From: a virus | DNA: 64,000 nucleotides | Virus record (IMG/VR): IMGVR_UViG_3300030508_000019 | Reading direction: 5' to 3' (one strand) | Shown here: positions 37,383-48,171 of the stretch, piece after piece | How the letters are laid out: each line of letters starts with the position of its first letter | Position numbering within the stretch: the first letter of the stretch is position 1 | Program-made: the position numbers and the translations under genes | Notes under the pieces: generated by a model | The model's input: the letters and a program-made list of their open reading frames with translations, nothing else | What the model was told of the DNA's origin: nothing | Databases searched by the model: none

Positions 37383-37389
37383 AATAAGT

Positions 37390-37418
37390 CTTGACAAATT
37401 TTCCAACTATCAGTATTA
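37390..37418 (+). promoter_or_regulatory. consensus sigma70 promoter TTGACA-17-TATTAT (copy A of duplicated element)
   Basis: -35 at 37390-37395 and -10 at 37413-37418. An identical promoter and leader recur at 48025-48053. Confidence 0.65.
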
Positions 37419-37424
37419 TATAAA

Positions 37425-37617
37425 GAGTAGTTGGTTCGGAACGAGCCATCAGGCGTTAACGTAGAAGTATTAAATTCAAGCGTAGCCTGAGAATCTTTAT
37501 GTGGGGGAGAACCCGCATTTAAAAAAGAAGTTCAACTAGTAGCTCCAACGGGGTGTGTTTGCGTAAAGCAATTAAAGAAACACTGATAGCCGCCGATTAA
37601 GGCGGCTTTTTTATTTT
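37425..37617 (+). ncRNA. candidate small RNA (promoter-to-terminator unit, about 190 nt, no ORF)
   Basis: Lies between the consensus promoter and an intrinsic terminator. The first roughly 110 nt are conserved with the 48060-48160 leader. Confidence 0.4.
37589..37617 (+). terminator. rho-independent terminator
   Basis: GCCGCC-gattaa-GGCGGC followed by TTTTTTATTTT. Confidence 0.7.
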
Positions 37618-37619
37618 AA

Positions 37620-37709
37620 GGAAGTGTGGGTGAATGGTTAAACCAGCGGTTTGCTAAGCCGCCGAAGCCTGAAAGGGCTATCCGAGTTCGAGCCTCGGCA
37701 CTTCCGCCA
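37620..37709 (+). tRNA. tRNA-Ser (GCU), type II
   Basis: Acceptor GGAAGTG/CACTTCC. Anticodon stem GCGGT/GCCGC with loop TTGCTAA. Variable-arm hairpin AGCC-TGAAA-GGCT. T-arm CCGAG-TTCGAGC-CTCGG. Encoded CCA. Confidence 0.7.
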
Positions 37710-37741
37710 TAACATCAAAACAAACTTTCTGTGTTCTTAGC

Positions 37742-38191
37742 ATGGACACTAAAATAGTTTGTAGGGAAAAACGGCATCGTTGGGCTAAAAGGCGTAGGCA
37801 AGATCCTAAATTTTTACCTAGCATTATTTGGCGAGATTCTCGTAGCTCAGATAAAAAATTGCTTCGGGAAAATGATCTTGACAAAGACTTTATTAAGGAT
37901 AAAATTAGCAATGGATGTTTTTACTGCGGAGAGACAAAAATAAGGATGACCTTGGATAGAATAGATAATAGCTTAGGTCATTTAAAGACGAATGTCAATC
38001 CAGCATGTATGCGATGCAACTATCTACGCAGGGACATGCCATACGATGCCTGGTTGTTTTTAGTTGAAGGTATTCGTAAAGCCACAGAGCAGGGAGCTTT
38101 TAACGGATGGCTAGGCGGTAACACTAGTAAATATGCTGGTGGGGAAGATTTAATGGACTTCATCGAAGTCGGTGAAGGTCCAGAAGAGTAA
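37742..38191 (+). CDS. HNH endonuclease
   Basis: CFYCGE…LDRIDNSLGH…CMRCNYLR (HNH/AP2-type). Adjacent to tRNA genes. Confidence 0.6.
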   Translation: MDTKIVCREKRHRWAKRRRQDPKFLPSIIWRDSRSSDKKLLRENDLDKDFIKDKISNGCFYCGETKIRMTLDRIDNSLGHLKTNVNPACMRCNYLRRDMPYDAWLFLVEGIRKATEQGAFNGWLGGNTSKYAGGEDLMDFIEVGEGPEE

Positions 38192-38290
38192 AAATTCGCA
38201 GCGGTGTTGCGTACAGTTACTTCGATACCCACTGGGGGAAACCCGGCAGTGGAGTTGTACCAACTGTATGTTTTATGTTCCCTGCGATTT

Positions 38291-38379
38291 GATGACATGG
38301 GGGAGATGGATTAACCCAGTAGCTTGGAAAGCTACCATACCGCAAGGTATCGATCGTTCGAATCGGTCTGTCATCGCCA
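38291..38379 (+). tRNA. tRNA-Ser (GGA), type II
   Basis: Acceptor GATGACA/TGTCATC. Anticodon stem GTAGC/GCTAC with loop TTGGAAA. Variable hairpin ATACC-GCAA-GGTAT. Encoded CCA. Confidence 0.65.
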
Positions 38380-45496: not shown

Positions 45497-45523
45497 CTGG
45501 TTGGTGATTCGTCCATAGTTAAA

Positions 45524-45559
45524 GGGGTGATCCTGGTCAGGTCGCCCCTTCTCCTTTTG
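45524..45559 (+). terminator. rho-independent terminator
   Basis: GGGGTGA-tcctggtcagg-TCGCCCC followed by TTCTCCTTTTG. Confidence 0.6.
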
Positions 45560-45772
45560 ATCTAGCCATTTACGATTTTCAGTGTATACTAGAAGGTATG
45601 GATACGGAAACGGTACAAATCATATATTACGAGAGCGGAAATGCCCCCACTGGTTCTGTAGCGGTATTAAAAGATGGAAGGTTTATCTTGACCAAGCTCG
45701 CCTACGATATGCTGCGAGCTAAAGCTGAAAACTGGGATAAATACCAGGAAAAAAAGAAATTGAGAGGGCTTC

Positions 45773-46606
45773 ATGGACTTGGAAGAACAAATAAGAAAGA
45801 CTGATTTTGCTTGGTATGACAATACGATACATTTGTTTATCGGCGGGTCGGGTTTGCATAGTGCTAAGGGAGATAAACCTACAGACCTTGATATTATGGG
45901 AGTTTATATCCAACCTGTGGAGCATGTTTTAGGCATTCCACAGTATTTTATTGAAGCGGATGGAAGAAAGAAATGGTTTAATCCAGATGTTCAAGTCTGG
46001 AGCACTGCGGAAGATTCTCGTAAAAATACGGCCGATGATGTGGATATAAATTTGTATTCTTTGCGTAAATGGGCAGGTATGGCAGCAACAGGGAATACCA
46101 CAGCCCTAGAGTTTTTATTCGCGGAAAATCAAGCTCAAAAAAATTGGCAATTTTGGAATAACTATATCGTGCTTGATCGAAAACATTTTATTTCCCGTAG
46201 AGCTGGATTTCATTTCATGGAGTTTTCTAAAGAGATGCTTAGACGACTGCAAGGGAAAGGCACAGGTAAACACGGACAGCGGGATAATCTTATTGAGGAA
46301 TTTGGCTACGACCCAAAAGCGGCCCTCCATTTGCTTCGAGTATTGAGTGAGGGTATTGAATTGATGAATACCGGCACAATCACATTACCCAGACCAGATG
46401 CGGAGTTTCTTAAGCTGGTTCGCCGGGGAAAATTTACATTTCCTGAGATTGAAGTCTTTGCCGCCAATGGATTTAATGAATTGCAAGCAGCCCAAGAAAA
46501 ATCCACTTTACCACCAGATGTGGACAGGGAAAAAATAAGCAAAATTATCACTGTCGCTCAAATGGACTTTTGGGGGCATGAAGTCAAATATGGAAAAAAT
46601 ATGTAG
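45773..46606 (+). CDS. nucleotidyltransferase-fold protein
   Basis: GGSGLHSAKGDKPTDLDIMGV fits the [GS]x9-13DxD motif of Pol-beta-superfamily NTases. A later acidic cluster is ADDVDI. Confidence 0.45.
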   Translation: MDLEEQIRKTDFAWYDNTIHLFIGGSGLHSAKGDKPTDLDIMGVYIQPVEHVLGIPQYFIEADGRKKWFNPDVQVWSTAEDSRKNTADDVDINLYSLRKWAGMAATGNTTALEFLFAENQAQKNWQFWNNYIVLDRKHFISRRAGFHFMEFSKEMLRRLQGKGTGKHGQRDNLIEEFGYDPKAALHLLRVLSEGIELMNTGTITLPRPDAEFLKLVRRGKFTFPEIEVFAANGFNELQAAQEKSTLPPDVDREKISKIITVAQMDFWGHEVKYGKNM

Positions 46607-46741
46607 GTATGCTTTCTGTCATCAACCAGCTCATCGTTTAATAAATTTCCCAGAATCCGGAAACTATATGTGGATATGCGATGATTGTCTTTCCAAGGCG
46701 ATAGTCTATTGGACCACATTGGGGTTGGAGTGGGAGTATTG

Positions 46742-47014
46742 ATGGACACATGCGAACTTTGTGGGAGAGAAAATCAAAGTTTATCGGGGCATCATCTGGT
46801 TCCCAAGGCTCGCCACAATAAAAAGGTTAAGCGGGATTTAGGGAAAAATCGCAATGTATTGGTCATGATTTGTATGCCGTGTCACCGGCAACTGCATAGC
46901 CTTTTCACTAACAAAGAGTTGGAACGAGAGTACAACACTTTAGAGAAGTTGAAAGATCATCCAGATGTAATAGCATGGATAGAATGGGTGCAACAGCGTC
47001 CAAGTTGGAACTAG
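46742..47014 (+). CDS. HNH endonuclease (small)
   Basis: CELCGREN…SGHHLVPKARHNKK…CMPCHRQLH. Start set at MDTCEL, which follows a GGAG SD. Confidence 0.55.
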   Translation: MDTCELCGRENQSLSGHHLVPKARHNKKVKRDLGKNRNVLVMICMPCHRQLHSLFTNKELEREYNTLEKLKDHPDVIAWIEWVQQRPSWN

Positions 47015-48024
47015 ATGGCTAAAGAATGGGTATTATGATCAATCCGCATGAAATGATTCGAGTGCTGGAAGACTGGAAGGCAACAATATTTATGGTACTG
47101 GCTAAAATTTCCTTTTATGGATTCAACTGAACGCGCAGCTTTTAAGTTATTACGCCGATTAGAAAGTTATAGGCATACGGAGTATAAAATTGGAGACCAG
47201 TTTCCCTAAGAAAGATGATGCGGATGAAGTTATTAGGGAAATTGATTCTACTTTGAGTTCCTTAAAATAGGAGTGGAAAATGGCGGCGAAACGTTTGTCC
47301 GATTTGATGTATGACTGCAAGCCGAAGCCAAAGCCAGATAGGAACAGACCGAAGTCTGAGCCAGCGAGAGGTTCGACAAGGGACGATCCGCCGAACTACG
47401 ACAGACCGATTTACGATCGTGACGGAAACAAGATCGGCGTGATTTACGACGCCCCGCCAATGCCGGGGCCGAGTGGACTATCATGAACGAATACTGGGCA
47501 ACACAGTTGAAACTCTGGGAAGCGCAACAAGCGTGGGAGAACATGGCGTGGGAGAACATGCAAGCGTGTCCGTGGTTATTCTATCCCATAATAATGCCGC
47601 CAGATACGGAGGAGCCGAATGGGTTACGGAATTATTGAACTGAAGTGCCCCAACGGGCATTTGTGGAACATCGAATGGTGCAGCGTCGGCGGCTTTCGTC
47701 AAGGTCCGACTAAGTGCTTGATATGCGGCGAAGAGGGTAAGAGTACGGTCTCGGTAGAGGTACCATCAGCAATTATTGAAATCCCGTCTATTACACCCAA
47801 GATATGAGACACCCCTGCGGTTACATGATTGAAGAAGACGAAGAGTGCGGTAAACCTAGTGTGGCAAATCAAGGTGGCTGGTATTTGTGTGCTGAGCATC
47901 ATGATTTGGTAATGGCAGAAATAAAAAGATTTTGTGATGAAGAAGATCCGCCAATCCCCTGTAAAATATAGTGTTTGCAATTATTTACAGGCGAAAATAA
48001 AAAAGTATGATAATGCTTGACAAA

Positions 48025-48053
48025 TTTTCCAACTATCAGTATTATATAAAGAG
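48025..48053 (+). promoter_or_regulatory. consensus sigma70 promoter TTGACA-17-TATTAT (copy B of duplicated element)
   Basis: Identical to the promoter at 37390. The roughly 140-bp repeat (48023-48160 versus 37388-37536) includes the promoter and about 110 nt of leader. Confidence 0.65.
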
Positions 48054-48171
48054 TAGTTGGCTCGGAACGAGCCATCAGGCGTTAACGTAGAAGTATTAAA
48101 TTCAAGCGTAGCCTGAGAATCTTTATGTATGGGGAGAACCCGCATTTAAAAGAAGTTCAAGGAATACGAGA

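Follow-up and report, generated by a model that had tools for sequence, protein, structure and literature searches.

Two copies of a promoter-leader repeat precede two tRNA islands

The DNA analyzed here is a 64,000-nucleotide (nt) stretch of a viral genome (IMG/VR record IMGVR_UViG_3300030508_000019; referred to below as the window) in which two tRNA gene islands, A and B, are each headed by a copy of the same promoter-containing repeat. Alignment, a repeat finder, and a 38-mer search placed copy A at 37390 to 37535 (146 nt) and copy B at 48016 to 48160, both on the plus strand. The copies are ~96 to 97% identical (family D2, 96%, according to the repeat finder), differing by one substitution (T/C, 37435/48061) and two small indels, and the 38-mer had two exact matches in the window, compared with none expected from 100 shuffles. 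These results bear out the original prediction, made from the sequence alone, that two near-identical promoter-plus-leader modules each head a tRNA island, although copy B begins 7 nt before the start that it gave (48023). Searching for further copies confirmed these two and, by both repeat finder and 38-mer search, returned no third in the 64-kb window.

As originally described, both copies contain the promoter TTGACA-17 nt-TATTAT. Promoter A spans 37391 to 37419 on the plus strand (−35 at 37391 to 37396, −10 at 37414 to 37419, and predicted +1 near 37426), and promoter B lies within copy B on the same strand (−35 at 48017 to 48022, −10 at 48040 to 48045, and +1 expected near 48052). The transcribed part of the repeat is predicted to fold into three hairpins (−31.2 kcal/mol, z = −4.06, with 0/200 shuffles as stable), which in copy A are H1 (37432 to 37448), H2 (37449 to 37490), and H3 (37499 to 37518; all plus strand). 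The palindromes noted earlier (CAGGC...GCCTG and CGTTAACG) are present and make up H2.

The predicted copy A transcript (37426 to 37612, 187 nt) contains a single ATG-initiated open reading frame (ORF), a seven-codon mini-ORF (ATG TGG GGG AGA ACC CGC ATT TAA; 37499 to 37522, plus strand). The transcript ends at intrinsic terminator A (37588 to 37612, plus strand; AGCCGCC-GAUUAA-GGCGGCU plus U6, with the stem at 37588 to 37607), 8 nt before tRNA-Ser(GCU) (37620 to 37709, plus strand; identified by tRNA search), the first gene of island A. The order terminator-tRNA-Ser and a length of about 190 nt had thus been anticipated correctly, but the mini-ORF means that the transcript is not ORF-free. 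The later genes of island A encode Ser(GGA) at 38291, Ser(CGA) at 38385, Ser(UGA) at 38479, and Leu(UAA) at 39362. An HNH/endonuclease VII-like ORF (37742 to 38191) separates tRNA-Ser(GCU) from the three later tRNA-Ser genes; it looks like a homing-endonuclease insertion in the island because the Ser tRNAs of related phages are adjacent.

Copy B runs into a 40-codon ORF (ORF B; 48172 to 48294, plus strand; MTFRKSNTNVASKQGERQRKHNNRWFGAAGLFLVDSTDVV) with the Shine-Dalgarno (SD) sequence AAGGAA at 48159 to 48164, 7 nt before the ATG. ORF B is followed by intrinsic terminator B (48318 to 48345, plus strand; AGGCCCACU-GAAA-AGUGGGCUU plus a U-rich tail, with the stem at 48318 to 48339) and by tRNA-Trp (48349) and tRNA-His (48452), so that every element of the earlier description of this copy was located. 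These two genes open island B (48349 to 50780, plus strand), which encodes Trp, His, Arg(CCG, GCG, ACG, UCG), Asn, Gln, Asn, Lys(CUU), and Phe tRNAs; Arg(UCU) and two Lys(UUU) genes lie beyond it, at 52964 to 53207.

Since both copies recur, each with its own distinct flanks, in many independent metagenome assemblies, an assembly artifact was ruled out as the source of the repeat. Assemblies of this phage derive from WOOD18-1/SAMN071xxxxx samples and from JGI 3300037063 and 3300031524, among others. Independent assemblies also stop within the 146-nt repeat (the end of L006, the start of L184, and the end of JGI contig Ga0395694_0000031), as expected of a true intragenomic repeat. Two coding explanations were rejected as well: a minus-strand ORF spanning the repeat would yield differing products from the differing flanks, and an upstream ORF conserved within the repeat is incompatible with the indels, which shift the ATG frame (MWGRTRI* in copy A and MYGENPHLKEVQGIRE* in copy B), so that the copy A mini-ORF is not conserved.

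A promoter, short ORF, terminator, and tRNA island form a conserved unit

Syntenic relatives were fetched via SprT, encoded just upstream of copy A, and RlaP, encoded 1.4 kb upstream of copy B. This yielded loci resembling island A (A type: L008, L020, L022, L025, L026, L029/30/31, and L032) and loci resembling island B (B type: L091 to L093, L185 to L188, and L246 to L248, ten distinct phages besides that of the window). The order promoter, short ORF, antiterminator/terminator, and first tRNA is kept in about 18 distinct related phage loci. Their promoters are homologous and occupy the same place (TGGACA/TTGACA-17-TATACT/TATCAT/TATTAT), the leader ORFs (22 to 40 codons) lie directly downstream of them, and the distance from the U-tract to the first tRNA is 5 to 30 nt in every case examined. 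Because this leaves no room for a second promoter before the first tRNA, it follows from the sequence that the tRNAs can be reached solely by terminator readthrough. In a survey of 157 tRNA islands, comprising all fetched loci, the layout was found only in this clade and in one further candidate, L158, described below; within the window, the tRNA groups at 14333 and 52964 have no ORF-terminator leader.

Leader codons match the downstream tRNAs

In A-type loci, the promoter is followed by a 22- to 25-codon ORF, a terminator, and, 7 to 23 nt further, tRNA-Ser(GCU); Ser(CGA), Ser(GGA), Ser(UGA), and Leu(UAA) genes come next, with Ile(UAU) where the contig extends far enough. The leader peptides include MNRISSLSSSSSSTGAGVGVYA, MNRLRISSSSSSSRSVAGVCVM, MTRISTLSSSSSVMGWGEGVGGL, and MNTLAISSSRSSSSNGGFGEVSHA; the L008 locus, at 10903 to 11094, provides one intact A-type leader. 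Codons cognate to the island tRNAs account for 7 to 11 of 21 to 24 leader codons versus a background of 3 to 10% (P = 6e-3 to 6e-8). Every A-type leader contains all six serine codons (conditional P = 0.007 to 0.14 each) and exactly one UUA and one AUA, codons whose usage is 0.07 to 0.6% in these phages and which correspond to the tRNA-Leu(UAA) and tRNA-Ile(UAU) genes of the islands. The block TCT AGT AGC TCC is invariant even at synonymous positions, whereas neighboring proteins are only 37 to 50% identical.

The B islands of the relatives encode Trp, His, four CGN-reading Arg, Asn, Gln, and Lys tRNAs, to which the window adds Phe. Homologs of ORF B precede tRNA-Trp in ten further distinct phages, with the leader peptides MTLKNANSTVTRKHQGHVRSNQRNNRWFGTGLFCVGEPTN (L091), MTSRKPNTIARKGVSQWRNRHFGVGLSSGVEVGI (L092), MTSRKANAIVSRKHQGDVRQRNNRWFGAGLFSVNEGN (L093), MTFRKSNSTRAARKHQGDGQRWNTAAGPFFDGVIVT (L185), MTYTKRNSAKNQRWHRNSDTSGGLIIV (L186), MTSMKHNTVARKQWRNRRHDGVGLSSDTEFGK (L187), MTFMTAKSSRKHQRRNNRWFGTGLFSEGWGA (L188), MISRKPNTIARKGASQWRNNRHFGVGLSSDGWDG (L246), MTSRKPNTIARKGASQWRNRHFGVGLSLEGWDD (L247), and MTCFIAKPRTSRKHEGFVHAQRNNRWLGAGLFCVGEPTN (L248). 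In B-type leaders, each noninitiator island tRNA has a cognate leader codon (8/8 to 10/10), a coverage equaled by only 0.3 to 2.5% of equal-length segments of the same phages' genes. The match extends to individual isoacceptors: the L091 leader contains CGA, CGU, CGG, and CGC once each, corresponding to four tRNA-Arg genes, while AGA in the window leader pairs with a tRNA-Arg(UCU) gene and AGG in the L092 and L185 leaders pairs with tRNA-Arg(CCU).

The regulatory codons of ORF B (AAG CAG ... CGC CAG CGG AAG CAT AAT AAT CGC TGG TTT; 48208 to 48249, plus strand) are overlain by a predicted hairpin (CCAGCG...CGCUGG; 48222 to 48246, plus strand). The relatives retain this hairpin with altered sequence (CAGCGG/CCGCUG versus UGGCG/CGCCA), and it is kept even though the order of the Trp and His codons is swapped between B subfamilies. 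This combination points to selection on the codons and the RNA structure rather than on the peptide sequence alone.

Terminators have a predicted alternative partner within the leader ORF

The stem of terminator A is kept in 8/8 sequences, with one GC-to-AU compensatory change in L022. We folded leader RNAs truncated before the 3′ arm of the terminator, as a mimic of the moment of decision, and represented the ribosome as a sliding footprint mask. In the truncated RNAs, the terminator 5′ arm paired with a G-rich segment of the ORF in 8/8 B-type leaders tested and in the majority of 7 A-type leaders. The G-rich segment lies directly 3′ of the regulatory codons, and its pairing forms the base of a long hairpin, worth 4.4 to 10.8 kcal/mol in B-type leaders. 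In copy B, this proposed antiterminator (48258 to 48323, plus strand) pairs GGGUCUG (48258 to 48264, codons 29 to 31) with CAGGCCC (48317 to 48323), thus overlapping the 5′ arm of terminator B, which takes 9.9 kcal/mol to free in the truncated RNA; the ORF B stop codon (48292 to 48294) sits in the apical part of the hairpin. A footprint with its A site on the regulatory codons left the pairing intact, while a footprint moved past them removed it. Complementarity is preserved although the paired sequences themselves vary from phage to phage (GGGUCUG/CAGGCCC in the window, CGGAGGC/GCCUCCG in L186, and CGGGUCU/AGACCCG in L188). A-type leaders also have a small hairpin, termed 1:2 (GCUCC-NNC-GGGG), within their conserved motif.

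Rfam searches gave two subthreshold matches to amino acid attenuators, namely, Trp_leader (RF00513) on copy B at 48243 to 48345 (26.2 bits versus a threshold of 41, E = 0.0026) and Phe_leader (RF01859) at 37474 to 37615 (21.1 bits versus 55). The Trp_leader match fits an attenuator-like shape, although at these scores the element belongs to neither family.

The leaders likely act as ribosome-mediated attenuators

The anatomy of these units, its conservation, the correspondence between codons and tRNAs, and the predicted alternative pairings are shown by computational comparison of the loci. Leader ORFs enriched in signal codons precede terminators, and the genes beyond the terminators have no other promoter; copy B further supplies a short ORF with a start codon and a ribosome-binding site, a feature that copy A lacks, its only ORF being the seven-codon one. 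The tRNA islands are therefore likely to be headed by a sigma70-type promoter and a ribosome-mediated leader-peptide attenuator whose ORF codons match the downstream tRNAs, with copy B best modeled as an intact member of this group that carries an extra structured 5′ leader. Of the regulatory roles first proposed for the cassette, attenuation of the islands is thus retained, although it would reside in the ORF and terminator downstream of the repeat, while a riboswitch or a small RNA (sRNA) cassette is not favored.

By analogy with trp-, his-, and thr-type attenuators, the leader ORF would be translated, the ribosome would stall on it, and readthrough would be regulated as follows. Polymerase would start at the promoter, and a ribosome would translate the leader ORF behind it. 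With ample charged cognate tRNAs, the ribosome would run into the G-rich 3′ part of the ORF and melt the antiterminator, whereupon the terminator would form and transcription would stop 5 to 30 nt short of the first tRNA gene. Should one or more of the sampled tRNAs be scarce, either because phage codon usage does not match that of the host or because host defenses cleave tRNAs, the ribosome would stall on the regulatory codons, leaving the G-rich segment paired with the terminator 5′ arm, and polymerase would read into the tRNA genes. The outcome would be a demand-driven tRNA supply under negative feedback.

Several observations weigh against this reading. The A-type ORFs have a weak SD (GAG), and copy A keeps its terminator before tRNA-Ser(GCU) despite having no leader ORF. 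Codon enrichment in B-type leaders is modest (P = 0.002 to 0.26), making their case weaker than that of the A-type leaders, and B-type peptides are partly conserved in sequence, as a functional micropeptide would be. Since the leaders are homologous, the statistics for individual loci are not independent. The terminator is always present in the minimum-energy fold of full-length leaders, the antiterminator mostly forms in truncated RNA even without a ribosome, and a mask representing a ribosome at the stop codon often lets the antiterminator re-form; the full-length and ribosome-free folds imply that the decision depends on kinetics that lie outside the scope of folding programs. Finally, for A-type leaders, RNAalifold returned no structure beyond the 1:2 hairpin and the terminator, and for a poor MAFFT alignment of B-type leaders it returned none, so that the evidence for antiterminator covariation consists of per-sequence folds.

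The proposed units share with the amino acid operon attenuators of Enterobacteria (trpL, hisL, pheL, thrL, leuL, and ivbL/ilvL, as well as pheM of pheST) a promoter-proximal ORF with regulatory codons, an intrinsic terminator before genes that have no second promoter, and an antiterminator, predicted in the phage units, whose 5′ strand lies in or just after the ORF. Leaders with mixed amino acids are also known, such as thrL (Thr and Ile) and ilvL (Ile, Val, and Leu). In contrast to those systems, the phage units would regulate tRNA genes rather than biosynthetic or synthetase genes, so that the output is the scarce molecule that is sensed, and their leaders sample single codons and isoacceptors (six for Ser; CGA, CGU, CGG, and CGC; AGA versus AGG) instead of runs of one codon. 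They also differ in occurring in very large soil and peat phages, in having the stop codon in the antiterminator apex, and in showing no sequence homology that we could find. T-box riboswitches likewise link tRNA status to terminator readthrough by antitermination, but in these the RNA itself recognizes uncharged tRNA, by means of a specifier codon and the T-box bulge, with no ribosome or ORF, whereas the phage sensor would be a translated ORF. The T-box model matched neither leader even at E ≤ 10, and it had no match at the gathering threshold in the whole window.

The structured leader is an insert specific to this phage species

The repeat differs from the corresponding region of the relatives by an ~80-nt structured insert (37428 to 37505, plus strand), which comprises H1, H2, and the 5′ half of H3 and occurs in no relative; in the relatives, about 15 to 35 nt separate the −10 hexamer and the ATG. 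The corresponding segment of copy B lies at 48054 to 48130. We found no homolog of the structured leader in 1.58 Mb of DNA fetched from related phages and no match in exact-pattern scans of IMG/VR and GTDB genomes. An Rfam scan assigned no family to the repeated leader, and it lent no support to the insert as a T-box, tRNA-like, or known sRNA element. The ~110-nt leader had been proposed to be a conserved regulatory RNA, a claim that fails by the refuting condition set out with it, since the leader has no counterpart outside this genome in the relatives, IMG/VR, or GTDB genomes. Judging from these comparisons, the structured leader is specific to this phage species, and since no relative carries the insert, it is dispensable for attenuation. 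Its most likely role, which is not established, is that of a stable 5′ stem-loop module or of neutral baggage.

An alternative explanation is that the repeated leader itself (H1-H2-H3) is the regulator, either as a cis-acting antitermination RNA resembling put or nut or as a ligand- or protein-binding switch for both islands. In favor of this explanation, each of the two near-identical copies immediately follows a strong promoter and precedes a terminator, and the predicted fold is stable. The single substitution between the copies retains the H1 pair (U-G versus C-G), and the same site is polymorphic among strains of the window phage, which are otherwise identical across the repeated leader and hence offer no covariation to draw on. 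H1 consists of a GC stem of 5 to 6 bp with a purine-rich loop, and boxB is of similar size. Moreover, copy A, with no leader ORF, must still pass a strong terminator for tRNA-Ser(GCU) to be expressed, and a put- or nut-like insert, for which only position and stability speak, would explain how it does so.

Nevertheless, the relatives operate the same islands without any structured leader, the insert has no homolog or Rfam match in the searches above, no N-like or other partner protein was identified, and a recent copying event accounts for the near identity equally well. The likeness to HK022 putL/putR and lambda nutL/nutR, which are likewise pairs of near-identical structured RNAs after early promoters and upstream of terminators, is one of layout; stem-loops just after a promoter in two copies, here within a 64-kb window, are an unspecific feature, and put and nut sites are conserved within their phage groups, unlike the insert. 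We therefore consider regulation by the repeated leader itself unlikely and continue to favor attenuation through the ORF and terminator.

A third promoter of the same family was observed at 6083 to 6112 (TTGACAAAAATTAAAAACTATGAGTATCAT, then ATAACAGTAGT), ahead of a gene at 6185. It has no structured insert, and this suggests that a promoter consensus extending over the first transcribed bases is used throughout the phage.

Copy A is best read as a decayed serine-codon attenuator

Although copy A has no leader ORF, it retains parts of one. A serine-codon remnant (AGT TCA ACT AGT AGC TCC; 37529 to 37546, plus strand) lies within the motif CTAGTAGCTCCAACGGGG common to the relatives and overlaps a predicted 1:2 hairpin (GCUCC-AAC-GGGGU; 37542 to 37554, plus strand). 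The TAA of the mini-ORF interrupts the frame leading into this remnant, the conserved GCG-TAA stop is out of frame, and the G-rich antiterminator strand has been cut down to GGGGU (37550 to 37554), which can alternatively pair with the terminator 5′ arm at 37589 to 37594 and is thus a weak candidate antiterminator. The best reading of this sequence comparison is that copy A is a decayed serine-codon attenuator, in which ~80 nt would have been inserted after +1, the ATG lost, and the serine run eroded, leaving a leader no longer able to sense serine tRNAs. It may now terminate constitutively, yielding the 187-nt RNA, or read through constitutively.

Rescue of the copy A serine frame by frameshifting or stop readthrough was rejected, since either shift leads to a non-serine frame or a TAG stop. 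A search of IMG/VR with the motif CTAGTAGCTCCANCGGGG yielded one chance match (L010), which lies inside a coding region with no tRNA nearby.

The relatives also suggest how the repeat arose. The window sequence GGAGAAC|CCGCAT + 17 nt + CTAGTAGCTCC aligns with the A-type sequence TAGAGAAC[AGCATGAA]CCGCAT + 17 nt + CTAGTAGCTCC, which indicates that sequence was inserted after +1 and that a deletion of 8 nt took the start codon. The match to the A-type leaders of the relatives shows that the repeat includes A-type leader sequence. This A-type remnant is present in copy B as well, which makes copying of the module from A to B the most likely course of events. On this sequence evidence, the copied module most likely consisted of the A-type promoter, the lineage-specific insert, and the decayed beginning of the A leader; its right end would lie shortly before the SD of ORF B, and a recent recombination or gene conversion event would have brought it to island B.

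The relative L007 has a TnpB-type gene (1184 to 2152; Pfam Cas12f1-like_TNB) directly downstream of an SprT gene whose product is 79% identical; at the position of this TnpB gene, the window has a 100-amino-acid ORF and copy A.

Roles as an sRNA or as micropeptides are possible explanations of the two loci that are less supported than attenuation. Copy A could be an sRNA gene whose 187-nt transcript acts in trans, with copy B reusing its 5′ module. It has a strong promoter, no ORF beyond the seven-codon one, and a terminator with a U-tract, and its predicted transcript is structured (z = −3.19). Furthermore, sRNAs derived from attenuators are known, an example being rnTrpL of Sinorhizobium: a terminated attenuator transcript can persist as an sRNA, and copy A would yield a comparable terminated RNA. 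Copy A is unlike rnTrpL in having lost its leader ORF. Against an sRNA gene, the 3′ half of copy A is homologous to the putative leader-peptide attenuators of the relatives, whose ORFs would be translated; no target for the copy A RNA is known, and weak Rfam sRNA matches cover the terminator only. In addition, tRNA-Ser(GCU) begins 8 nt past the U-tract and so needs readthrough. We regard this explanation as quite improbable.

Least probable, by a small degree, is that the short ORFs are functional micropeptide genes, each with a terminator of its own, the tRNAs being expressed by constitutive leak-through and the codon match being a by-product of serine-rich or basic composition and of ancestry: the B-type peptides do share motifs (RKHQG, RNNRWFGxGLF, and MTSRKPNTIARK) and their enrichment P values are modest, but peptide function would not account for six serine codons together with the rare UUA and AUA in A-type leaders, for conservation of TCT AGT AGC TCC at synonymous positions amid divergent neighboring proteins, for the permuted Trp/His order, or for an ORF that always lies between the promoter and a terminator abutting a tRNA, and pairing with the terminator arm explains the GLF/Gly codons.

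Implications for phage tRNA supply

Phage tRNA genes have usually been viewed as constitutive helpers of codon usage and, in newer work, as a means of replacing tRNAs that host defenses destroy, and leader-peptide attenuation itself is classical. To our knowledge, there is no prior report of such attenuation before the tRNA genes of giant phages. A full-text literature search, with incomplete coverage, found no description of attenuation before tRNA genes with leaders that list isoacceptors.

We give even odds to a further reading, in which very large phages of one soil and peat clade would control their tRNA islands with leader peptides that list the downstream tRNAs codon by codon and would thereby possess an inducible tRNA homeostat and counter-defense switch, a principle that may extend to unrelated phages. 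If this were true, the islands would switch on after host anticodon nucleases cut Lys, Arg, His, Asn, Trp, or Ser tRNAs, or whenever demand exceeds supply, and the phage would gauge tRNA availability by means of the ribosome, with the sensed molecule also being the product. The order promoter, ORF with codons matching downstream anticodons, terminator, and tRNA would provide a signature for mining phages and bacteria, and the two loci described here would illustrate both the decay of such a switch (copy A) and the copying of a promoter module from one island to another.

The candidate outside the clade, L158, comes from an unrelated AT-rich IMG/VR phage. Its positions 5277 to 5500 contain a promoter, a 35-codon ORF (MFTFCNYQPEPSFSVESHEWDTMGFDIAIGGGSSN), and a terminator, followed 15 nt later by an island of His-Val-Pro-Glu-Tyr-Asp-Phe tRNAs. 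The ORF has cognate codons for 7/7 of these tRNAs, a match reached by 5% of control segments, and L158 may be an independent instance of a codon-sensing leader.

Other features of the islands and of the phage genome

Some further features of the B islands were observed. In the window, two paralogous small ORFs (48633 to 48830 and 48820 to 49008; 65 and 62 amino acids; repeat D5) lie between tRNA-His and the tRNA-Arg genes. Relatives have short histidyl-tRNA synthetase-like ORFs (144 to 177 amino acids) between tRNA-Trp and tRNA-His (L091, 16523 to 16990; L092, 15124 to 15657; L246, 16721 to 17194; L247, 12112 to 12645; and L248, 16813 to 17247), which are absent at that position in the window. 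ARAGORN called a tRNA with a two-base anticodon, (ta), at 50293 to 50363, and it missed both a tRNA detected by Rfam at 52407 to 52480 and the tRNA-Trp of L188.

The phage represented by the window is novel: comparison with INPHARED gave no DNA match in either near or distant mode, and there are only distant protein links, for example, to Salicola phage SCTP-2. An NAD ligase, an SprT-like protease, an RlaP nucleotidyltransferase, and a vault-shoulder-domain protein link the window to uncultured phages from peat and soil metagenomes, with some related contigs measuring 455 to 894 kb. B-type leader relatives are found on large contigs, including L246 (JGI 3300035696 Ga0374055_0000025; 894 kb), L187 (463 kb), and L189 (456 kb); the clade therefore includes very large phage genomes, or possibly these contigs are misassembled or joined to host DNA.

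The vault-shoulder domain is unusual for a phage. The vault-like protein (Pfam Vault_3/MVP_shoulder) is encoded by two consecutive ORFs in the window (43016 to 44896 and 44939 to 45496) and by one gene of 810 to 843 amino acids in relatives and other strains; the split may be due to a stop or frameshift, to strain variation, or to recoding.

A second intergenic repeat is present at 36275 to 36351 and 62664 to 62740. Its copies, 77 nt long and 73% identical, end in TGTATACTATAGGTGGAGG and may represent another promoter or ribosome-binding-site class.

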